Source of the DNA: a virus
Reading direction: 5' to 3' (one strand)
IMG/VR virus record: IMGVR_UViG_3300008085_000023
Location: 32,001 to 96,000 of that record
DNA length: 64,000 nucleotides
The position numbers and the translations under genes were made by a program. The notes beneath the pieces were generated by a model that saw only the letters and a program-made list of their open reading frames with translations, did not search any database and had not been told where the DNA came from. This document shows, one piece after another, positions 4,305 through 63,980 of this stretch. How positions within the stretch are numbered: the first letter of the stretch is position 1; each line of letters starts with the position of its first letter.

Positions 4305-4737
4305 TTTGTATTTCCTTTATGTGTTTGCATGCTTTCTTGCGAAATTTGTATTGAGCACACGTGCATGTGTAATTTCCGCTGCCAAGATTATTGACAGTAT
4401 AGACATCACCTTTTGATCCTGTGACTTCCCATTGAGTTGTAATTTCATCTTGAGCAACCCCATCAATTGACGCAATGTTCTTTCGCTGCACCAATTCAAT
4501 AACAGATGATTGACCATCTAACCGCATTACACGATAATAGTGATCGGAATCAAACCCAGGAAGTTCACGCCAGGGAAGGGTAATTCCAGGAAATGCTTCA
4601 CCTACTCGCTTAACATATGGTGTGATCACGTCCTTAGTGACAAAGATATGTAGATCAGAGAGTGTAACTCCCTCTAAATATATGGTTTGCTCAGTTATAA
4701 GCTTATCACAAAGTTGTTGGCGACTCCTTTTCATCAT
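4291..4737 (-). CDS. SWIM zinc-finger protein
   Basis: VTGSKGDVYTV...CTCAQYKFRKKACKHI. Confidence 0.8.
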   Translation of the reverse strand: MMKRSRQQLCDKLITEQTIYLEGVTLSDLHIFVTKDVITPYVKRVGEAFPGITLPWRELPGFDSDHYYRVMRLDGQSSVIELVQRKNIASIDGVAQDEITTQWEVTGSKGDVYTVNNLGSGNYTCTCAQYKFRKKACKHIKEIQNGEK

Positions 4738-4970
4738 ACATTCAAATTGCTTTCATCTATAGCGCCTTCAATGCACTGTAAAGTCGTCGGATCGTACTTT
4801 TGACCAAGGCCTGGCCCAATACCCATCCCACACTTCTCAAAACATGTAGGACACATCAATGCCCAGGGTCCTGCAATAGTTTTGCCATCGACGAAAAACT
4901 CGACGATATGGGGCTTCAGCGGCCCATCACATATATCGCATAGTTCATGCTCACTTAGCCACTTGCCCAT
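4734..4970 (-). CDS. small Cys-rich hypothetical protein
   Basis: CDIC...GPWALMCPTC...GLGQKY; RBS upstream. Confidence 0.6.
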   Translation of the reverse strand: MGKWLSEHELCDICDGPLKPHIVEFFVDGKTIAGPWALMCPTCFEKCGMGIGPGLGQKYDPTTLQCIEGAIDESNLNV

Positions 4971-5014
4971 TGTATCTCCTTCACTTACTCATTAATAACA
5001 TCAACACCAAAAAT

Positions 5015-5320
5015 AGAGGGGCTGCTGCCGGCTTGTAACGGCGAGTTAAAAAGACCCGAACCCCCAAGGTCTACCCGCTTGATATCGTGCACTTTACTGC
5101 ATCAACGTGAATCAGAAGCCCCACTGTTACAAGAGGGTTGAGCAAAGCTGTAATAGGATTCGAACCTATATCTGTCCGGACAAACTGTCCGCTGTGATTA
5201 CCATTACACCACACCGCTCATCGCGCCTTGAAGCTTGCTGGCTTCGCTGGCTGATGTCTTCCTGCTTCGGTATTTCTGGGCAGCAACCCTTACTCTCACC
5301 TCAGCGCTTCTTCTCACATC
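5015..5320 (-). ncRNA. putative structured ncRNA with embedded tRNA-like domain (copy A)
   Basis: Non-coding, downstream of early promoter and boxA-like TGATCTTTGAAA (5324-5335); tRNA-like domain 5146-5218; shares hairpin motif with 11437-11695. Confidence 0.6.
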
Positions 5321-5351
5321 AAATTTCAAAGATCAATTGCTTGATAAAACC

Positions 5352-5680
5352 ATTATACACCAGCTTTTTTAGCATGTACACCATTATATTCAATTATTTT
5401 CACCTGAAAAGCTAAGTCGGGCTCGATTAAGGACTTATGCTGAAAAATAGTTTTCGTGATGGTCCGAAAACGGTTGTAGAGATGGTAGAGATGGCTCCCA
5501 CGTGGTAGGAAGCCTCTCCACGTATTACGTACAGGCTGGCTCCTGAGTCACTCTAGAATGCATTGGACTCTCGGGTGTATGTTTACCCTCGTAAAACTGC
5601 AGAAACACTCCTGAATGCATCTCTAATCACGGAGCCCGATATCCGGACGACTTGGGAGACGACCCGAAACTTATTGACAA
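5352..5680 (-). repeat. early promoter plus extended intergenic module
   Basis: TGTACA-N17-TATAAT, TAAGT-N15-ACTTA, GAGTCACTCT hairpin element. Confidence 0.7.
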
Positions 5681-5937
5681 TCTACAGCGGAATAGCTCCA
5701 CCGAATTGTTCTACAATGTGTTTATTCATATGACACATAGCTTCAATGATAGTGGGATTATATATACCACGACCTAGGCGCATCACCTTACCCATTGCAT
5801 ATTTTATACGTTGATCATATGAATCATAGCTTTCCATATTATGTATCATGCAATAACCAACCATGCTATCATGGATTACAGTAGCAATATCTATGATACT
5901 ATATCTGTTAAACGATTCTTCAGACATTTAAGTTCCT

Positions 5938-6231
5938 TTAGAAAATGGTGGGTGCCGAAGGAATAACCATCCAATGAGTTAGCGTATCTCCCAGCCAGCA
6001 CTCGTCTCTTCCCTCGTCTCTCCAAAACCATTCACGCGTATCGGCCTCATACCAGACAATCCTAGCGCGATAACCATCCCACCCCATTACTTCGTCTGCG
6101 TTGGGCGGGAGTCGTTCGCAGCAAGGCACCCAACAATCACTTTGACCCGTACAGGAGGAAGTCGGTTTAGGTGGTGGCGGTGGCAGTTTGTTTTTCTCTG
6201 GCGCGTAGCTTCCGTATATCTCTAATTTCAT
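5938..6231 (-). CDS. DUF551-like protein
   Basis: WVPCCERLP...THWM. Confidence 0.6.
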   Translation of the reverse strand: MKLEIYGSYAPEKNKLPPPPPKPTSSCTGQSDCWVPCCERLPPNADEVMGWDGYRARIVWYEADTREWFWRDEGRDECWLGDTLTHWMVIPSAPTIF

Positions 6232-6751
6232 TTCACATTCAACGCTAATACCATATCCTCTCGGATCTCTTCAGCAGCTTCCCGTCGAGCCTGCTTCTTC
6301 CAATAACGCCGGGTCTTCTGCTTACCGACTGAACGAATAACGTGGCCGGATCGAGTGGCCAGACCATAATGCCGAATATCTTCAACATCGGGCCATTCAA
6401 CACCATCTTCCCGCGGGATACCATATGCTTTCATAACTTCATTCTCCTAGAATGTGGCGGTGGCAGCCGTAATCTTCTTCCCGAGCAGAGCGCTCAGGCC
6501 TTCATTCACAGCGTTGGCCATGGCTTGGTTCATATCACCAAACCCATACTGCCGGTGCTTTTCATTTGCCACAGCGATCGCCTCGGCCTTCCGTAGACGG
6601 AAGCGATATTCACCCAACGATTCACCTTCTAACATCTTCATATCCGTGACGCATCCTGTATTAGTACGTTCCCAATTACAGCCAGCACCTTCAGCACTGT
6701 TTGCCCGATCTCTCTGCTTTGTTCGTTCATTATATTACTTCCTCTGATATT

Positions 6752-7000
6752 ATTATAAACCAGTTTCTGCAGCTTGTACACCATTATTTTCATTTATTTT
6801 CGGCTAAAAAGCTAAGGTCCAGCTTATCAAGCACTTATGCTGAAAAATAGTTTGTGGGCAGTAATAACGATGGTAGAGTAGATGTGTAAGTGGTTGATAC
6901 GCGGATGGCTCCTGAGTCACTCTTCAGGCCATTTTGCCCTTTTTGAAGGTAAATATACATCCTACGACTCAAAATGCTCTCAGGAGTGATTCCGGACTGC
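6752..7000 (-). repeat. early promoter plus extended intergenic module
   Basis: Near-copy of the 5352-5460 block; TATCAAGCACTTA IHF-like site; GGCTCCTGAGTCACTCT shared with 5538. Confidence 0.7.
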
Positions 7001-7341
7001 AGATTTGACTGTAGAGAGATTCTTAAGCTAGCATGCTAAAACACCAACGATAACCACGATCATGTGGGCCTTTATCGGTCGTGCCGGCAGGATTAAATAT
7101 ACAACCATCGTTACGAAACATGCTCACATAATATTCATATGGTTCTACACGGCGAGGCTAACGAAATTTGAGGGGTGGGATAAAGCCGTTAAGTTGATCT
7201 TTACGCGAGAAACGGATGGCTGATATGCATGTGCTAATAATATTTTGATGATAGTTAATCTTTTCATGCTCTAATAAACAGTAGTGTTGTTGTATACATT
7301 ATCTCGTCATCCTTTATGTTTTGAATCTAACATTGAGAAGA

Positions 7342-7707
7342 TCACACCCAAAAGTGGTATCTCCTGCACTTGGCGCAGGATTGACCTATAGGCACACCAT
7401 GTTGACATTGACCAGAGTATGGCCGATCAATAGCGTCCTTCTCCAAGGGTGCATCCACCTTTTGAGGCGGTGAACTTTGCTCGGCCGCTGTTTGGATAAT
7501 AGCCCTAAGCCGAACAATTTCAGCATTGGCTTCTGCAACAATCTTATCATAGTATTCTGTAGAGACGGTGTTGAGCTCAAGCAGTTGATAGTCGTGATAA
7601 CTGACGTACGTACCATTCAGATTATCAACAAACATACACGCTCTGCTGTCGTCCACGGGATCCACATGTGGATCGTATCTTAATACCATAACGTCGATAT
7701 CACTCAT
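7342..7707 (-). CDS. hypothetical protein
   Basis: 121 aa ORF directly after early promoter 7739-7769. Confidence 0.6.
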   Translation of the reverse strand: MSDIDVMVLRYDPHVDPVDDSRACMFVDNLNGTYVSYHDYQLLELNTVSTEYYDKIVAEANAEIVRLRAIIQTAAEQSSPPQKVDAPLEKDAIDRPYSGQCQHGVPIGQSCAKCRRYHFWV

Positions 7708-7754
7708 AATAATTTCCTATTCTTAACTTCATAGAATTATTATACCATGGTTTG

Positions 7755-8609
7755 TCAAATTTGTACACCGTTATTTTTATAGGCATTGAGATACCCCTCG
7801 ACAATGAAGTATTCCTTTGAGAGTGTCCCATCCGTAAAGTAGTTGAATGAATTGACGGATGTTTCGACTGTCCTCCAAAAGTTTACTTCCTTGCCGTAGA
7901 TATTGAACACTTCAGCGCTATAAAAATCAGCAATCTTTTTATGTGTCTTTATGAACTCGGTATAGAAGCTTTCATACAGGTCGATATCCTGCTGCAACTC
8001 TTCTTGACGAGTGTCTGTAGAGATCCGACGAACATGAATGTATTTGACGTTATCGAATTTAGAAATATACTTCACCAACTCATCAAACTCAACGACGTTA
8101 TAACGGTTCAGTACAATAGAGACACGTACGTTATCTCCGCTCCTGGGTATAATATAATCCCAATCAGGTATATCACTTCGACCCATAATCTTTTTGTTAG
8201 TCTCGGGATTCAGACTGTGAATGGAATACCCAATCTCATCCTGCATTAGATCGATGAGGCACATCTTCTCCTGCGCTAAATATCCATTCGTTCGAACACC
8301 AACTGTAAAGCCATAGTGTTGAAGGTGGATCAACAAAGACCTAAGATGCTCGGACTTATATTGTAGTCCGTCAGCAGTCTGACCGGTGAGATATAATTTC
8401 GTTATGCCGTTCTTAGCACACTCTGACAGAAACTCATTGAAGTTTTTCCATTGCGTCCATGGGACATCCAATTGGTTCTTCCCTGCGAGCTCATTACAGA
8501 TATCCTTGCCGAGGCAAAAGTAGCAATTTGCATTGCATTGGCCCAGTAGGTTAATGTTTGCAAACGTTGGCGCTTTACGATTTCGATTCTTTTTGATTTC
8601 AATTTTCAT
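7755..8609 (-). CDS. radical SAM protein
   Basis: CNANCYFC (CxxxCxxC), LTG, RTNGYL. Confidence 0.85.
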   Translation of the reverse strand: MKIEIKKNRNRKAPTFANINLLGQCNANCYFCLGKDICNELAGKNQLDVPWTQWKNFNEFLSECAKNGITKLYLTGQTADGLQYKSEHLRSLLIHLQHYGFTVGVRTNGYLAQEKMCLIDLMQDEIGYSIHSLNPETNKKIMGRSDIPDWDYIIPRSGDNVRVSIVLNRYNVVEFDELVKYISKFDNVKYIHVRRISTDTRQEELQQDIDLYESFYTEFIKTHKKIADFYSAEVFNIYGKEVNFWRTVETSVNSFNYFTDGTLSKEYFIVEGYLNAYKNNGVQI

Positions 8610-9831
8610 ATTAGTGCTTATATAAAGTGTAGAATGAATTCTTCGTCTTAAAACGAATATGATCGTTAGTAATTTCTAAGATCTCTGTGATTACCGTTGT
8701 GCACCACCAGTCCCTAGATGAAAACATCCCACCTGTAACTGTACCAATATATAATCCGAATCCCAAAAGCGATTCGGGATTTCCATCCCAACTATGCATA
8801 CTATCGCTCAGGTTCGCTGGTATAAGATTTAAGACAGAACCATAGTGTCCTTCGCCATCGCGATCTCTAACTAATCTTGCCATCACTCATCTCTTTCAAT
8901 ATTTCGTATAGTGATTTAACTTCAAAAAGTAAGAACAATTCGTGAGGCTTCACTCCCGGATGTTTCGACGATAGATACGTATTAGCATTACGCTTTCGAG
9001 TAAAACACAGTTCAGGATATACCAGCTTTTGTGTTGTTCGATTAACAATTAACCATTTATCCTTTGTGCACACTTTCATTTTACGAGACCCGTTGTGTAT
9101 AGTTGTAGTAGAGAGTCACTCCAATAGCCCACATGACACTGATGACCGGATTAATGTATATACACACCAACATCATGGCGAGTGTCTCAGGAGTGAACTG
9201 GAGAGCCGCCGTAGCGATTCGATATGCGAGTAATTGCAGCTTATTCATGTTTTTCTTTCTGTTGTTTGTAGATTACCAGGATTCAGAGACCATGGGTTCT
9301 TTGCCTAAGGCGTTCGTTATGTCAGCCAATAATTCGTATACGATACCACGATCAATGGGGATTCGTTCATGAGCCTCATTAATTGTCCACGCTTCTTTAG
9401 GTGTAATCACATGCAGCACACTATGAATTGTAGCGCTGAAGCACTTGGGAGTGTCTGAATAGATATCCATTACAGAGCCGCCTTCTTCTGATTAATGTGG
9501 TAACATGCCGGAACCATCTGCTCAAGAGAGCGGAAGAATGCTGACGCAGTATCTCCATTGGCGATGCATTTCTGCATGCGTTCCACGATCTGGCGAGTTG
9601 TCATTTTCTTGGTCTTCATAGTTTTCTCCTACAGGTTAAACGCTTTCTTCAGCGCCGCTATTATTTCAATAGCTTTTTCTTTATCAACGTCAACAGACGT
9701 CTCAGTATCAGAACTGTAATGATCACATGCGTGTTCAGTGAATTCAAAATATGCATGATTATCGAAACGTTCCCAAATATCAATTGACAGTTTCAGTGTG
9801 CTTCCAATATCGACTTCGTTTTGTTCATTGG

Positions 9832-10155
9832 TCATATTGACCTCCGTTTTGCAGCATTGATAACTGCGGTAATTCTGTGGCGGCCGATCGGATTTGCCGA
9901 GTGGCAAAATGTTCCATCCTTGGGCCAGACATTATTCTCTTCCATCCAACATGCTACGATATAGCCCGTGTCATCGCCGCCGAGGTCATGGTCAAGTGAG
10001 CACTCAATAACATTCTGTGTTTTGAGAATCTCAATTGCCTCAGCGCTAGTCTTAGCGACAACCCAATCCCGAAGTCCAGAAAACACTGGATTGCGGATAT
10101 CATCCACGTATAGCCGTATTGGAGCTGTATTAGTTTTATTAACTTTAAAATTCAT
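9832..10155 (-). CDS. cyclic-phosphate-processing receiver-like domain protein
   Basis: LYVDDIR, SLDHDLG, DTGY, HSANP.G motifs; start moved to MNFKV after promoter. Confidence 0.7.
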   Translation of the reverse strand: MNFKVNKTNTAPIRLYVDDIRNPVFSGLRDWVVAKTSAEAIEILKTQNVIECSLDHDLGGDDTGYIVACWMEENNVWPKDGTFCHSANPIGRHRITAVINAAKRRSI

Positions 10156-10787
10156 AGAATTATTATACCACACTTTCTAAATTCTGTACACCATTATTTT
10201 AACTCTACAGAAAGGCGTCAAATACGCGATTTAGAGTTGTCGTCGCTTGATCCTGATCGCGATCACAACTAAGGATCTCAAAATCGGGATACATGTCTAC
10301 GTCCTCGCCATCCCGGCGCCAACCTTTAAGCAGGTGAGCAGCTGCTGATTTGTGACCGGCGAAATAATCCTCTGCAGCCGAGACTGCACCATTGATGCTA
10401 TACGTCAGAACGCTGTGCTCGAGCCAACGACATCCTGTCGTAGTTTCATGAAAGAAGATAACCTCGATGTTATTCGGTTCTGATAGTACGCTCATTATAT
10501 GCTCCTGATTTCGCGAATAATGCCCTGGAAGTGCCACATAAAACGACGATCCTTTTTATATGCTAGGACATGTAGCATGGTCCGCCCGAATCTTGACGAT
10601 GCGAATTGTAATTGGCGATCGATACTCATGTTACGACTTCTTTACTTCTTCAGCCATACGCCGGGCATTCCGATGGATCTTGTTGGCCAAGGCCCGATCT
10701 TCCTGGGCCATCTTGTCAAGCTGCTTCTTCCATTGATTCGTCTTCATACTGTATCCCTTTGCTGTTACCGTTATTCCTCTGATATCA

Positions 10788-11035
10788 TTATAAACCAGTT
10801 CTCAGTAAAAGTACACCATTATTTTTCAGTTTTTAGCACTTTTTTGTTAAGTAGGGCTCCAGAAGGGACTTACACAATCACTTATTTTCGCGAAAAAAGG
10901 CCCTCAAGTGGTCCTGAATGAACACTGCATCTAAAATAGGGTTAAATTACACTAAATCAGGTACTTATGCATTCAGGACCACTTGAGGGCCTCGATTTGC
11001 CGTCAAATCGGTAGTTGTAGTTGTAGTTGTGGTTG
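10788..11035 (-). repeat. early promoter plus extended intergenic module with 23-bp inverted repeat
   Basis: Promoter, TAAGT-N15-ACTTA, perfect IR 10898-10920/10970-10992, (GTAGTT)n. Confidence 0.75.
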
Positions 11036-11111
11036 TGGTAGGCTTAGTGGGAGTCGAACCCACGACCTGCAGAGTAGGAATCTGCTGCTCTGTCCTCTGA
11101 GCTATAAGCCT
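11036..11111 (-). tRNA. tRNA-Arg(CCT)
   Basis: Cloverleaf, GCAGA-TTCCTAC-TCTGC, CCA encoded. Confidence 0.95.
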
Positions 11112-11352
11112 ATAACGTGTTTACATCGTCATTAGTTGCTGTATTCATCGCCAAAATCCTCCAAACAGTTCTTCAAAACCAGTAGGATATGCCGGAGCTT
11201 TCGTGTGTTCAGAACTCTTACTTGTATCCCATACCACCTCAACGAGTCGCTTCAGTTGAGATACCGGTAGTGACACACGTCCCTTGCCGATCAACTTATT
11301 TTGATCAGCAATATAATTCCACATCTGTTGTTTGTTCGTTATCATAATAAAA

Positions 11353-11430
11353 TGGTCGGAGTAGAGGGATTCGAACCCCCGGCCCTCGCGTCCCAAACGC
11401 GATGCGCTAACCAGACTGCGCTATACTCCG
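11353..11430 (-). tRNA. tRNA-Pro(TGG)
   Basis: Cloverleaf, TCGCG-TTTGGGA-CGCGA, CCA. Confidence 0.95.
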
Positions 11431-11436
11431 TAAAAA

Positions 11437-11695
11437 GGTGAGGGCCCCGAAGGGAAGAGCAATTGAATATGGGGATTCGAACCTCATGATTCCAGCTAAA
11501 CGCTGGTGTCTTGCCAATTAGACGAATTCATTACCTGTTTTTTAACATTGCCGTGTTACGTCACGGGTATCTCTTAAGGACAAACTATCAGGGCGGCAAC
11601 CCTTACACGTTCCTCCAACCACTCAAAAATCAACATTTACCGGATGACCCCTAATCCATCGTCTCCGATATCGACCTCATCTCTTGGCCCTACCA
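11437..11695 (-). ncRNA. putative structured ncRNA with embedded tRNA-like domain (copy B)
   Basis: After TATAAATA; ends pair (GGTAGGGCC-AAGAG / CTCTT...GGCCCTCACC); tRNA-like domain 11462-11532 with 5-nt anticodon loop. Confidence 0.6.
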
Positions 11696-12370
11696 CTGTT
11701 CTGTTATAATATTTATATATCAAATTGGCTCGGATTATATTATTTTACATGGTAACCCGAGAAGACCCATGAACTTTTAGGATGATCTTTCTGCAACTTT
11801 CGCGATTGGACCTGTTCGTACTCGTTCATCCTTGTTGCAACACAGCTTGTTCGCTGTAAGATTAATCTTCGATTGTACACCATCCGGCAACAGCACCGAC
11901 TGGTGGGATGAAAACTCCCACGCCCCGAATCGTCTCGGCCTTAAATGGCGCTTCAAAATCGCACTGGCAAACCTTAACTACATTCATCACCCAACCACTC
12001 ACAAATAGGCACACCAATAACATCGGCACCAACATAATCACTGTCTTCATAATCTTCTCTCTCACTGTTAATTTATTATGGTACTAATATACCATAGTCT
12101 ATCAGATTTGTACACCATTATTTTCAGACTCGAATGCTTATCTTATGAGATCAACGCACTCGCCGAAGTACTTGTCGAATACCTGAATCAAATTCTCATA
12201 ATCGCTTGTCGTCATTTCAGTGACGATAGCAGCACCATCAAGGTCCATGCGTTTTGCAAAACGCTTTGCTGCTCCTATCAAACAAAAGGCATTACCCTCA
12301 GGTCCACTGAGATCAATCGTCAGCTTGGTGTTCGGATGCTCTGTTAAAATTGCCATTGCGTCTTCCCTCT

Positions 12371-12832
12371 TTACTTAATGTTATTAGCTACTGCAGCTTT
12401 ATGGGCTGCCATATCAGCTGCCAGCAATTTTGCAACCTTCTTGGACTTAATCAAATCCAAAGTGGCTGCGACTTCTTCCTCAGTGAATTCCAGGGTAAGG
12501 AAAGCCCAAGTGCCCCGTTTCCCACCCCTGACGATGAATCCTGGTGAGCAACCGCAGCTGCATCCAGCCTTCTGTGAAAACCACACATTTTTCAGAGGAA
12601 CATCGAAGTGTTCTACGAGACCGGCATAGACGATCTTATTCGTAAAGCGGGTAAGAGCGCCCCACGCCTTGGACTTAACTTTTAGTTCCCAGATCTCGTT
12701 AGCCATGAACCACTTATCGATGATGGATCGAATATCCATGTTATCATCACTGCAGGACACCATCACCTTGCAGTGATTAAAACTGCGTTCTTGATAATTC
12801 CGCTCACGCTGATCGACGTTGACTACCTTCAT
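12371..12832 (-). CDS. hypothetical protein (WFSQKAGCSCGCSPGF motif)
   Basis: 153 aa ORF after early promoter. Confidence 0.6.
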   Translation of the reverse strand: MKVVNVDQRERNYQERSFNHCKVMVSCSDDNMDIRSIIDKWFMANEIWELKVKSKAWGALTRFTNKIVYAGLVEHFDVPLKNVWFSQKAGCSCGCSPGFIVRGGKRGTWAFLTLEFTEEEVAATLDLIKSKKVAKLLAADMAAHKAAVANNIK

Positions 12833-20387: not shown

Positions 20388-20427
20388 TCTCTTTTCCTTC
20401 TGGGCTGCTGCCCTGTTGCTTGATACC

Positions 20428-20625
20428 ATTATACACCAGTTTCAGCCATAAAGTACACAAAAAAGTGATCCCGACAGCACTTTTTTGCTAAGTAGGCCTC
20501 TAGAAGGGGCTTACACAATCACCTTTTTCGGCCTTTTGGGCCCAAAATCGGCCAAAATCGACCCATGAGGGCGTAAAATGCATAAATATGGCTCCGATGG
20601 CCATTTACATACTGTAGTTGTGTAA
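20428..20625 (-). repeat. early promoter plus extended intergenic module
   Basis: Two TAART-N15-RYTTA palindromes; GACCCATGAGGGCGTAAAATGCATAA shared with 24721. Confidence 0.75.
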
Positions 20626-36044: not shown

Positions 36045-36288
36045 CATTGTGTTCAAAATACTGCGTTACGGTATTCCCGGGATTTCCCCAGCTCATATTT
36101 TCATACGAGATCAGACTATATCTTCAACTCAATGAGTTGCCGAGCGCTTCCATTCACTTGAATGTACTCCTTGCGGATAGTCGTTGCACCTTCCACTTTG
36201 TGGCTTGGCTCAGTATTAGCATTTGAAAGCCTTCACTGAATTCACACGGTGTTAACGTGAGCATCGCTGCTCACGGTCCCACTATTTT
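36045..36288 (-). mobile_element. group I intron (244 nt, no ORF) in DNA polymerase motif B
   Basis: 5' exon ends U with U.G in P1 (TCCT|AAAATAGT-GGGA); GCAACGACTA and AAGATATAGTCT (P7); terminal G; removal restores AYKILLNSLYG in frame. Confidence 0.9.
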
Positions 36289-36389
36289 AGGATCTTGTAA
36301 GCCATTTGCTGATTAGAGAACACCTCAATCTTAGCATCGAGAGTGTGTATCTTCAATCGCAGCTCTGCTATTCTTTCTTCTTTATTCAT
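36289..36389 (-). CDS. gp43: DNA polymerase gp43B exon 1 (not in ORF track)
   Basis: MNKEERIAELRLKIHTLDAKIEVFSNQQMAYKI + CT; AAGGT RBS; own early promoter. Confidence 0.85.
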
Positions 36390-57045: not shown

Positions 57046-57657
57046 TTATTCATCATCGTCGTCATTAGTCTTCTCCCTAACAAGGAATGAATCCAAGAAG
57101 GGTTTCCACTGAGGCTTCATATCGATATGAGCAGTCATTTGATTCATATGCAAAAACCACGAAGGCTTCTTAGGTTCAAACAACAATCTCATTCCTGCTT
57201 CTTCAGGTGTACGGTCAGCCTTGAAATGATTGCAGGGCTTGCATGCAGAAATTGTATTCTGCCATGACTTTGGTCCACCGAATGATTTCGGATTGATGTG
57301 ATCAACCGTCAATTCCTTTTTGGTGAATGTTTGGCCGCAGTAACCACAACGATATCCATCGCGCACAAATAAGCTTTCACGCGAAAACTTTACTTGGTTC
57401 TTTGGAAGACGATCGAACTGGGTTAGAATTACAACCTGTGGTACAGCTATACGATTATTAACCGTATGGATGATGTGCTGAGTAGGGCTCTGCTCAATCT
57501 TAAGAGAAGCGTCTAGCCAACTTTTGAAGTTATATTGAATATAGTTTTGATCCACTACGTGGCATTTGTCCTGCATCAGCAGCGACATAGTACGCTTCCA
57601 ATTGATAACATGTATAGGCATGAAAACCTTGTTTAAAACTAGTGCGTCTCTTTTCAT
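57046..57657 (-). CDS. HNH endonuclease (McrA-like)
   Basis: RDGYRCGYCG...TVDHINP...ACKPCN; start moved to MKRDAL. Confidence 0.85.
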   Translation of the reverse strand: MKRDALVLNKVFMPIHVINWKRTMSLLMQDKCHVVDQNYIQYNFKSWLDASLKIEQSPTQHIIHTVNNRIAVPQVVILTQFDRLPKNQVKFSRESLFVRDGYRCGYCGQTFTKKELTVDHINPKSFGGPKSWQNTISACKPCNHFKADRTPEEAGMRLLFEPKKPSWFLHMNQMTAHIDMKPQWKPFLDSFLVREKTNDDDDE

Positions 57658-57673
57658 AATATTACTTTCAATT

Positions 57674-57749
57674 TGGAGGATGCAGTGAGAATCCAACTCA
57701 CACAATCACGGTTTGCAGCCGTGCGCCTTTAGCATTCAGCCATACACCC
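57674..57749 (-). tRNA. tRNA-Cys(GCA)
   Basis: CACGG-CTGCAAA-CCGTG, CCA. Confidence 0.9.
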
Positions 57750-57962
57750 ATTAAACTACTTTGATCTATATTAACATATTTAGGTGTAATTGTACACCAT
57801 TAGTTTTGCTGCCCAAGGTGAAAGCTCTCACCTTAGGACTTTAAATAGGTCAACCTTTAAGTCGCATTATTGGAATTGCTTCTTCACATATTACATATAT
57901 CGGAGACTCATACGTCCAATTTGACGTCTCCTATTATGCGTATACCGATTGAATGTGTAAAT

Positions 57963-58053: not shown

Positions 58054-58127
58054 TGGTTGCTTCACCGGGATTCGCACCCAGACAAAGAGCTTCAAAGACT
58101 CCTGTGCTGCTATTACACTATGAAGCA
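58054..58127 (-). tRNA. tRNA-Gln(TTG)
   Basis: GGAGT-CTTTGAA-GCTCT. Confidence 0.9.
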
Positions 58128-58133
58128 ATAAAA

Positions 58134-58215
58134 TGGTACCAGTGGAGGGAATCGAACCCACAAACATATCACCTGCTTCTAAGGCAGGCCGCTTTGCCAG
58201 ATTGCGTACACTGGT
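58134..58215 (-). tRNA. tRNA-Leu(TAG)
   Basis: CCTGC-CTTAGAA-GCAGG. Confidence 0.9.
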
Positions 58216-58379
58216 ATTAAAATGTGTTTAGTAGTGAACTTTACAACGCGAGAATTTATTGCTTCGCTCCACAATCGCTATATCAAGCAATTACTTCTGT
58301 TAGCATCAACCATCCTCGTAGATGTGATATCATCTATCTTCAACGTATTTCACAGTGTGATACCATGACTAAACATAAA

Positions 58380-61837: not shown

Positions 61838-61914
61838 TGGTGCCCCCATCGGGCTTCGAACCCGAATCGCCGGATTGAGAGTCCAGTATTCTATACCGTT
61901 TAAACTATGGGGAC
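61838..61914 (-). tRNA. tRNA-Glu(CTC)
   Basis: CTGGA-CTCTCAA-TCCGG. Confidence 0.9.
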
Positions 61915-61921
61915 GATAAAT

Positions 61922-61996
61922 TGGTGCCTCCTGTAAAACTCGAACTTACAACGTCAGGTTCGTAGCCTGATGTGATATCCGTTTCACCAAAGAAGC
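61922..61996 (-). tRNA. tRNA-Arg(ACG), second copy
   Basis: TCAGG-CTACGAA-CCTGA. Confidence 0.9.
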
Positions 61997-62005
61997 AATA
62001 CCGTA

Positions 62006-62674
62006 TTAAAACTTTATCTTACGGCCGATAAGCCAGCCCTCAGGCACCAGCATATCTTTTGGAACTCGTTTTGAGACCTTTTCATATGGGTTGTAAATCC
62101 ACTTGGTCCCAAATTGGGAATTCCGACTGCCCAATTGACTAATTTTATTAGCCGACCCGATTCTTTTCTTAGCATCTTCTGAATGAGTTTTGCCAAGAAA
62201 TGCTCGAGTATTCTTACGCTTTAAGAAATCTGGATCATCTTCAATTTTTAGTTTCAAACCCGTAACCCCTTGAATTGCGAGAATACTTCGCCAATTAGGA
62301 CCATACTTCGCCTTTAATTTTTCATCTGCAGCGATCCGGCCTTTACGGGCAACTTCAACGTTGGAAAATCCATTGAGATTGTTTTTATTGATTAAATCCC
62401 AACCTCCAGAACCACCAACCTTTAGGTTATATGTGTTTTCTTCAGTTAAGAAATCTTCATTAACGATCTCAGCTTCTTTAGCATACATGTCTTCAGGGTT
62501 GTCGTAAACGAACAAAATCTCTTTGGTAAAGTTTTCAATACCATTCTTCTTTTGAGCTCGTTTTAGATACTTACCTGAACCCATATAATTGTCATTCGGA
62601 TCAATGGTCTTATGGCTTCCAATATAGAACTTGCCATTGATCCGATTCGTTATCTTGTATATCGTATAGAACAT
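62006..62674 (-). CDS. GIY-YIG (Seg-like) homing endonuclease in tRNA array
   Basis: TIYKITNRINGKFYIGSH, YMGSG, YNLKVGG; TATAAATA upstream. Confidence 0.9.
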   Translation of the reverse strand: MFYTIYKITNRINGKFYIGSHKTIDPNDNYMGSGKYLKRAQKKNGIENFTKEILFVYDNPEDMYAKEAEIVNEDFLTEENTYNLKVGGSGGWDLINKNNLNGFSNVEVARKGRIAADEKLKAKYGPNWRSILAIQGVTGLKLKIEDDPDFLKRKNTRAFLGKTHSEDAKKRIGSANKISQLGSRNSQFGTKWIYNPYEKVSKRVPKDMLVPEGWLIGRKIKF

Positions 62675-62730
62675 AGAATTACTCCATGTTCTTATTTATA
62701 CAAGTTCGAGTCTTGACTAGACTCTGAAAG

Positions 62731-62803
62731 TAGCGGAGGTTGGAATCGAACCAACGTCACTGGGGTTATGAGCCGCAGCGGGGAACCAGCACCCCACTCT
62801 GCA
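62731..62803 (-). tRNA. tRNA-fMet-like (CAT), no encoded CCA
   Basis: CTCATAA loop, 1:72 mismatch, A73. Confidence 0.75.
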
Positions 62804-63876: not shown

Positions 63877-63980
63877 AGTATAACACAATGGCCATGGCAT
63901 GTACACCATTATTTTCAGTTTTCGGTAACTTTTTTGCTAAGTTGGCCATTATCAGGTACTTAGGGCTAAAAATAGTTTCC
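63877..63980 (-). repeat. early promoter plus start of extended intergenic module
   Basis: Promoter; TAAGT-N15-ACTTA with TATCAGGTACTTA IHF-like site. Confidence 0.7.

Follow-up and report, generated by a model that had tools for sequence, protein, structure and literature searches.

A structured RNA with an embedded tRNA-shaped module in an uncultured T4-type groundwater phage

The element described here is a structured noncoding RNA (ncRNA) built around a tRNA-shaped module, found in two copies in a 64,000-nucleotide (nt) stretch of DNA (the window) that corresponds to bases 32001-96000 of the 141.9-kb IMG/VR phage record IMGVR_UViG_3300008085_000023, a record with terminal repeats. The phage is a distant, uncultured T4-type phage from groundwater and carries UvsX, gp32, and a DnaB-like helicase. 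Copy A lies on the minus strand at ~5317-5107, and copy B, also on the minus strand, at about 11625-11440. We regard it as highly probable that the element is a real, selected, and non-decoding structured RNA: its fold and its flanks are under selection, and its decoding and CCA features have been lost. The reading that we favor, with moderate confidence, is that of a phage-encoded family of structured ncRNAs that derives from a tRNA gene and functions as an intact fold instead of decoding as a tRNA. The initial annotation of this DNA had proposed a candidate new ncRNA family, and that proposal has held up, the element lying outside every Rfam family but for a weak generic tRNA match to its middle part.

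Copy A is arranged in the order hairpin H1, helix P2 enclosing hairpin H2, cloverleaf, and a trailer with hairpin H3. Its features, in window coordinates, are the following; A' denotes the ortholog of copy A in a sister phage.

5352-5380, minus strand: promoter-like site ahead of copy A (TGTACA, 17 nt, TATAAT), read from the sequence.
5306-5317, minus strand: 5' strand of P0, a proposed closing helix with 5119-5107, from RNAalifold of A and A'; provisional.
5278-5293, minus strand: 16-mer with hairpin H1 (GGG, 6-nt loop, CCC), identical in A and A' and with one loop change in B.
5219-5256, minus strand: helix P2 enclosing hairpin H2 (5245-5230; loop 5240-5235), from covariation among A, A', and B.
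5145-5218, minus strand: tRNA-shaped module with acceptor, D, and T arms, a short non-canonical anticodon hairpin, discriminator U5145, and no CCA, from ARAGORN, Rfam, and compensatory changes.
5107-5144, minus strand: trailer with UUGCUC-NN-CCC, hairpin H3, and the 3' strand of P0; 89% identical in A', its start common to B.
5018-5106, minus strand: 3' domain with a variable hairpin, a conserved box at ~5087-5072, a terminator-like hairpin and U run at ~5070-5048, and a tail, from alignment with A'.

In H1, G5289-G5287 pair with C5280-C5278 around the loop UUGCUG (5286-5281). The complement of this loop, CAGCAA, lies at 5240-5235, 40 nt past the loop, and the cloverleaf begins 16 nt later at 5218, so that the hairpin, the downstream complement, and the tRNA-like domain of the initial annotation were all recovered in place. 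The H1 16-mer is found at only two sites in the window, those of copies A and B. CAGCAA in turn forms the loop of a second hairpin, H2, with a 5-bp stem and a 6-nt loop exactly complementary to that of H1. The contact first called a covarying pseudoknot is therefore better described as a loop-loop (kissing) interaction; the pairing and its compensatory change stand. The last base of P2 is the one directly preceding the acceptor stem, so that base -1 is paired. Folded in full, copy A has a minimum free energy (MFE) no lower than shuffled sequence (z = 0.01), so that thermodynamics alone does not single out this region and the support for the fold is comparative.

This comparative support comes from one ortholog and one paralog. 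A scan of metagenomes with an H1-plus-T-loop pattern gave 7 chance matches and 1 true ortholog, A', on metagenome contig L123. The sample that yielded this contig also contains a phage with a helicase 72% identical to that of the window. A' is syntenic with copy A, with the promoter module upstream (83% identical between the two phages) and a gene for a 78-amino-acid protein (the 78-aa gene) downstream. Between the window and L123, identity is 91% in the leader, 89% in the trailer, 73% in the cloverleaf, and 76% in the adjacent coding sequence (CDS); leader and trailer are thus more conserved than the neighboring protein gene. In the acceptor, D, and T stems, every difference between A and A' either is compensated across the pair or mends a mismatch, and none breaks a pair.

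A covariance model trained on A and A' only (R1) finds copy B over its full length (64.7 bits, E about 3e-14) and recognizes exactly two copies in the whole genome. Ordinary tRNAs match R1 only at model positions 77-149, its tRNA part, with at most 38.6 bits. Weak full-length matches of 16-27 bits occur in the main tRNA array at window positions 57654-57807, 61902-62038, and 58110-58244 (-), and these are probably tRNAs plus their flanks.

Copy B shares the architecture of copy A, and the recurrence of the layout at 11.6 kb with a compensatory change, as first annotated, is borne out at 11606-11444: the copy B H1 loop is UUGCCG, and its complement CGGCAA lies at 11553-11548, at a 45-nt offset as in copy A. 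Its parts are as follows.

11591-11625, minus strand: conserved 5' end and H1 16-mer (11606-11591); the R1 match starts at 11606, and contigs match up to 11625.
11532-11569, minus strand: P2 (UACC with GGUA) enclosing H2 (11558-11543; loop 11553-11548), from the alignment and R1.
11461-11532, minus strand: tRNA-shaped module, Lys-UUU-like, with G33, a 5-nt loop, and no CCA, from Rfam, ARAGORN, and the MFE fold.
11432-11460, minus strand: trailer with H3 (UUCG loop), up to the 5' edge of tRNA-Pro (11430-11353), from the alignment and an RNA-library contig.

When A, A', and B are aligned, 91.9% of the cells are paired, compared with 31-48% when the partners are slid by 1-3 columns, and 19 of 45 pairs have changed on both sides, compared with 1-3 in the slid controls. 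None of 500 shuffles reaches the observed pairing values. Compensatory pairs are spread over the helices (P2 three, H2 three, acceptor four, D three, T three), and in the H2 stem 3 of the 5 pairs differ between A and B with pairing kept. The kissing helix is paired at 6/6 positions in all three copies, with one compensatory change from U-A to C-G, and P0 shows one compensatory change from G-C to A-U between A and A'. The H1 and H3 stems are invariant, H3 being paired in A, A', and B, and the loop-E label that the initial annotation gave to the first hairpin finds no support in an H1 that never varies. Near-identical contigs (L097-L106) add no informative variation.

Within this fold, the module keeps the body of a tRNA. 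All three copies have a D loop with GG and the T loop UUCGAAU. Across the acceptor (7 bp), D, and T stems, 86-93% of cells are paired, and each of these stems has 3-4 compensatory pairs; the acceptor stems of A and B contain mismatches. ARAGORN and Rfam place the copy A cloverleaf at 5144/5145-5218/5219, ARAGORN labeling it tRNA-Asn and Rfam scoring it at 38.6 bits, the weakest of the 31 Rfam tRNA matches in the window. The copy B cloverleaf scores 28.7 bits against a gathering threshold of 29, i.e., 0.3 short, and ARAGORN reports it only at a relaxed threshold.

The decoding end of the module is a different matter. The anticodon arm is the least conserved part of A versus A', with an indel and a different loop. 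Copy A has the loop CAGUUUG (A33, U37, G38), which can close up to 3-5 nt, and copy B has G33, so that U33 is absent from both; in MFE folds the loops close to 3 nt in A, 4 nt in A', and 5 nt in B, the last on a 5-bp stem. The A' loop is different (4-8 nt), and ARAGORN reads a 4-base anticodon there. A 7-nt loop with U33, a purine at position 37, and an anticodon kept between orthologs, which together would mark a tRNA, are not found in A, A', or B. The description of the domain as anticodon-less was right in that no anticodon loop is conserved, and it was overstated in that a short hairpin takes the place of the anticodon arm. The lack of CCA was correctly noted as well: A, A', and B run from a discriminator U directly into the trailer, whereas the other tRNA genes of the genome end in NCCA with a single exception, a tRNA-Met(CAU) call in the main array at window positions 62730-62803 (-).

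The element is also represented in RNA libraries. The stretch is present in 24 public runs, almost all of them labeled aquifer, with single cold-spring and hot-springs metagenomes, and 4 of the 24 are metatranscriptomes. In four aquifer metatranscriptomes, copy A is covered without mismatch by single contigs (5027-5311, 5023-5307, 5018-5299, and 5059-5305) that bridge both borders of the cloverleaf, placing leader, cloverleaf, and trailer in one piece; the 3' domain is covered down to 5018-5059. One RNA-library contig is of the A' type, and another covers copy B from 11625 to 11432, stopping two bases before the 5' end of tRNA-Pro. A and A' diverge at the points where these contigs end (5299-5311, 5018-5059, and 11625), and the ends are therefore probably assembly breaks and not RNA ends. 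Missing contigs over the neighboring genes in these libraries are not usable as evidence.

The main rival to a tRNA mimic acting as a whole is processing punctuation, which we judge unlikely but ahead of the other alternatives (odd tRNAs, a cis-acting leader, and pseudogenes). Here the module would be a cleavage signal comparable to MALAT1-mascRNA, plant mitochondrial t-elements, or tRNA-operon spacers, cut at its borders by RNase P and a 3' endonuclease, and the leader, carrying the kissing hairpins, and the trailer would be freed as functional small RNAs. This would suit the conservation of leader and trailer in sequence (91% and 89%) and of the cloverleaf in shape only (73%, with compensatory changes), as well as the intact elbow and acceptor features that RNase P recognizes; the end of the copy B contig 2 nt before the tRNA-Pro 5' end, an RNase P cut site, is a weak hint in the same direction from one contig. 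Set against it are the pairing of the -1 base by P2, which leaves no single-stranded 5' leader at the cut site, the lack of RCCA, the uncut passage of the unit across both junctions in four RNA libraries, and P0, which suggests that leader and trailer fold together. With the -1 base paired in P2 and a structured trailer following on the 3' side, the tRNA body is probably not released by RNase P and 3'-end enzymes.

A considerably less probable explanation is that these are unusual working tRNAs, Asn-GUU-like in A, Lys-UUU-like in B, and with a four-base anticodon in A', that evade host anticodon nucleases, the leader being a duplicated precursor sequence. Phage tRNAs with anticodon-loop changes that resist defense nucleases are documented, and this phage carries tRNA repair enzymes; GUU is kept in the A loop and UUU in the B loop, and copy A has both the tRNA-Asn label and an Rfam score above the tRNA cut-off. 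The missing U33 in A and B, the closure of the loops to 3-5 nt, and the change of anticodon between A and A' speak against decoding, and the absence of CCA sets the copies apart from the other tRNAs of a genome that already encodes canonical Asn-GUU and Lys-UUU tRNAs. All copies also have a discriminator U and an A1-U72 pair, which we take not to fit the identity elements of AsnRS or LysRS. The leader and trailer are, moreover, more conserved than a coding gene.

Nor does a cis-acting leader, i.e., an attenuator or mRNA-processing element that would control the operon of the 78-aa gene through the hairpin at ~5070-5048 and alternative pairings, appear at all probable. Copy A does have a promoter on one side and a terminator-like hairpin on the other and precedes the 78-aa gene by ~75 nt, an arrangement kept in L123, and the alternative pairings that the initial annotation read as hints of a switch are present in its sequence. 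The distal one, however, is lost in the sister phage, where the pairing with GGCAGCAGCCC falls to ~5 bp in A', and the AGGG.../...CCCU pairing is weak in B, so that the switch is not upheld. Copy B is followed by a tRNA gene (tRNA-Pro), not by a coding gene, and in more distant phages the 78-aa gene homologs lack both an upstream gap and such a leader. L123 has, in addition, an extended -10-like element between the terminator-like hairpin and the 78-aa gene, and the gene may therefore have its own promoter.

Decaying, functionless tRNA pseudogenes, alike only through recent duplication, are similarly improbable: a narrow distribution, degenerate anticodon loops, missing CCA, and acceptor mismatches in A and B are what decay would leave, but the A/A' substitutions in the acceptor, D, and T stems compensate or repair without breaking a pair, the flanks outdo the adjacent CDS in conservation, H2 and P2 show covariation between A and B, old paralogs whose sequence around these helices has been randomized, and the unit is present in RNA libraries.

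How a whole folded molecule of this kind might work can be outlined from its architecture. The tRNA module would be held inside a multi-helix junction, with P2 at base -1, the trailer on the 3' side, and P0 closing the structure in A and A'. Held in this way, the RNA may be a stable mimic of tRNA shape that works in trans, offering an elbow and an acceptor body to a factor that binds tRNA. This factor could be a host tRNA-processing or tRNA-modifying enzyme or a tRNA-directed defense nuclease, and the conserved leader and trailer could provide stability or a second binding surface. We put this mimic or decoy mechanism forward only tentatively. The large tRNA array, an RNA ligase, and RtcB fit a lifestyle centered on conflict over tRNA, and a full tRNA set together with these two enzymes makes such conflict with the host likely. 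A narrower and more doubtful version is a counter-defense or take-over device: a nuclease-resistant tRNA decoy, its body locked by P2 and P0, that would sequester a host factor recognizing the elbow and acceptor; RNase P, a tRNA-modifying enzyme, or a defense effector that cleaves tRNA are examples. The H1-H2 contact would then have one of two roles: to stiffen the decoy or, by opening, to let it base-pair with another RNA.

If tRNA mimicry toward a host enzyme or defense nuclease were correct, it would add an RNA-based mechanism to phage counter-defense; a decoy, specifically, would give a T4-type phage a trans-acting RNA of defined function and might explain the stable RNAs of T4 and T5. With its covariation-supported fold, its lost decoding and end-processing features, and flanks more constrained than a neighboring gene, the element is a cleaner example than those RNAs, and it offers a compact construct of ~200 nt for testing what such RNAs bind.

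Several points weigh against the interpretation of the element as a whole-molecule structured RNA. The comparison involves three sequences only, from two closely related phages, with nearly identical leaders in A and A', and the pair counts use an alignment fitted to the R1 structure model. Few or no substitutions bear on H1, the kissing helix, and H3, and P0 forms only 4/6 pairs in the same register in copy B. Assembled contigs are uninformative on ends, abundance, and strand, and the RNA libraries may contain carried-over DNA. Both a binding partner and a resistance to RNase P are postulates of this reading. The distribution is, finally, narrow, with two phage species and none among distant relatives, IMG/VR, or GTDB genomes.

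This distribution was established by several searches. Blastn of both copies against 50,697 cultured-phage records gave no match, and the 56 exact matches of the 16-mer in IMG/VR were all unrelated coding sequence or chance. The H1-plus-T-loop pattern gave 8 chance matches in IMG/VR, inside unrelated tRNA arrays, and a T-loop-plus-trailer pattern gave 0 matches in IMG/VR and 3 chance matches in GTDB genomes. Helicase relatives in IMG/VR are at most 57% identical to the window helicase, and the element was not found in distant relatives with helicases 39-57% identical, at 45 loci and in 5 whole records; in one relative (L008), nothing lies upstream of the tRNA-Pro. A candidate on L127 was rejected as an ordinary tRNA-Met with CCA.

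Among known RNAs, Rfam returned only tRNA matches and noise, both for the whole window at gathering thresholds and for 4500-12500 at E up to 5. GOLLD, ROOL, raiA, T-box, and lysine riboswitch, the families that had been singled out for this check, gave no match and are thus excluded at that sensitivity. A resemblance to a hammerhead, from CUGAUGAG at the P2/acceptor junction of A', was dismissed as coincidence, since the motif is absent from A and Rfam is silent. The element shares with canonical tRNA (RF00005) the order of the cloverleaf, the D loop GG, the T loop, and the 7-bp acceptor, and copy A passes the cut-off that copy B misses by 0.3 bits; A and B differ from it in having no U33, no kept 7-nt loop, and no CCA, and in being embedded in conserved flanking helices. 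We therefore describe it as a real structured phage RNA without an Rfam family of its own and as a probable variant within the class of phage tRNA-like stable RNAs.

The tRNA-like stable RNAs of large virulent phages such as T4 and T5 have been known for ~50 years with no function assigned. T4 RNAC (species 1, rnaC) and RNAD (species 2, rnaD) are, like copies A and B, small ncRNAs of a T4-type phage beside tRNA genes. Their roles are unknown (PMC3014915; PMC12685909), and according to a 2010 review of T4, no trans-acting regulatory RNA of that phage had been functionally characterized (PMC3014915). In our reading of its sequence, T4 rnaC consists of a 5' extension, an acceptor-like stem, a canonical T arm, and a short-looped central hairpin, and it scores 17.5 bits against the tRNA-Sec model, a far lower tRNA score than that of copy A. 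The T4 genes lie at the end of a tRNA cluster; copy A is instead distant from the main array and has a promoter to itself. No kissing-hairpin leader like that of copies A and B was noticed in T4. In the T5 record, three genes (RNA1, RNA2, and RNA3) are entered as stable, tRNA-like, and functionally unknown, and RNAX is annotated as well; these resemble the present element in having a tRNA-derived module in a longer RNA and in lying among tRNA genes behind early promoters, and they differ from A and B in size and flanking structures. R1 matched T4 rnaC and rnaD only at the rnaC T arm, with 11 bits, and in T5 it matched genuine tRNAs but not RNA1, RNA2, or RNA3, with one match in the RNAX gene (L141, 21435-21503, 23.3 bits) confined to the tRNA part of the model. 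Because R1 misses T4 rnaC/rnaD and T5 RNA1-3 beyond that 11-bit T-arm match, the phage RNA is best regarded as an analog of the T4 and T5 RNAs and not a detectable homolog.

Transfer-messenger RNA (tmRNA) likewise combines a tRNA-like body without an anticodon with pseudoknot-type contacts, but the cloverleaf here is contiguous, not built from the 5' and 3' ends, and no tag reading frame is evident. ARAGORN found no tmRNA in the genome or at the two loci, and Rfam gave no tmRNA match even at E up to 5. Permuted two-piece tmRNA genes do occur in distant relatives with helicases 39-57% identical to that of the window: L012 13528-13931, L026 3897-4274, L027 4058-4437, L038 4200-4569, L039 9729-10085, and L040 4070-4443. 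They lie downstream of the helicase in L012 (2.2 kb) and L039 (6 kb) and upstream of it in L026, L027, L038, and L040.

Bacterial and phage Y RNA (YrlA), which acts with Ro/Rsr, is another ncRNA with a tRNA-like module and is often linked to RtcB, a gene that the window phage carries. The topology of YrlA is different: a cap closes its acceptor-like stem, and its ends are on the opposite side. No Ro/TROVE gene was matched in the 142-kb phage record, in a search that detected the control genomes and had the host genome outside its range; with no TROVE match and no Rfam match, identity with Y RNA was rejected. MALAT1-mascRNA, plant t-elements, and the 3'ETS-leuZ sponge carry, as here, a tRNA shape inside a longer transcript with functional sequence outside the tRNA part, but they are eukaryotic or chromosomal, and the paired -1 base of the phage RNA argues against easy access by RNase P.

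ARAGORN makes 37 tRNA calls in the window, all on the minus strand, and 39 in the whole genome, copy A counted. Copy A lies far from the main array with its own promoter-like site, in agreement with the promoter placed there by the initial annotation; the boxA-like 12-mer reported beside it is attributable to chance, since it occurs 12 times with up to 2 mismatches allowed where 12.4 occurrences are expected. The copy A promoter module is repeated (70-87% identity) at window positions 6752-6853, 20416-20442, and 63897-63978, where it precedes other transcription units, the main tRNA array among them.

The 11-mer GGCAGCAGCCC, complementary to the H1 region, occurs in the copy A tail at 5019-5029 and again at window positions 20402-20412 (-), in a hairpin in the 5' untranslated region of a gene (ATG 20386) that sits behind the same promoter family as copy A; matches with at most 1 mismatch number 5, against 0.42 expected. 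Two uses of this 11-mer, an 11-bp distal helix between H1 and 5029-5019 and a candidate target in trans at 20412-20402, were rejected, since the sister phage conserves neither.

The sister contig L123 carries an insert of ~110 nt between the promoter and A', with an orphan T-arm fragment at 6690-6660 (-) that resembles the copy B T arm. One RNA-library contig links upstream insert sequence of the L123 type to copy A of the window type, and a recombinant variant thus exists in the aquifer.

The other genes of the window phage include an alpha-glucosyltransferase along with the RNA ligase and RtcB. Between copies A and B lies a radical-SAM enzyme (window 7755-8609 (-)) with homologs 64-75% identical that are widespread in metagenomes, one of them on a 249-kb phage-like contig with RtcB, RNA ligase, a CCA-adding-type enzyme, NADAR, and NAMPT. 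A group I intron (Rfam 95.7 bits) is located between DNA-polymerase open reading frames at window positions 36092-36298 (-).
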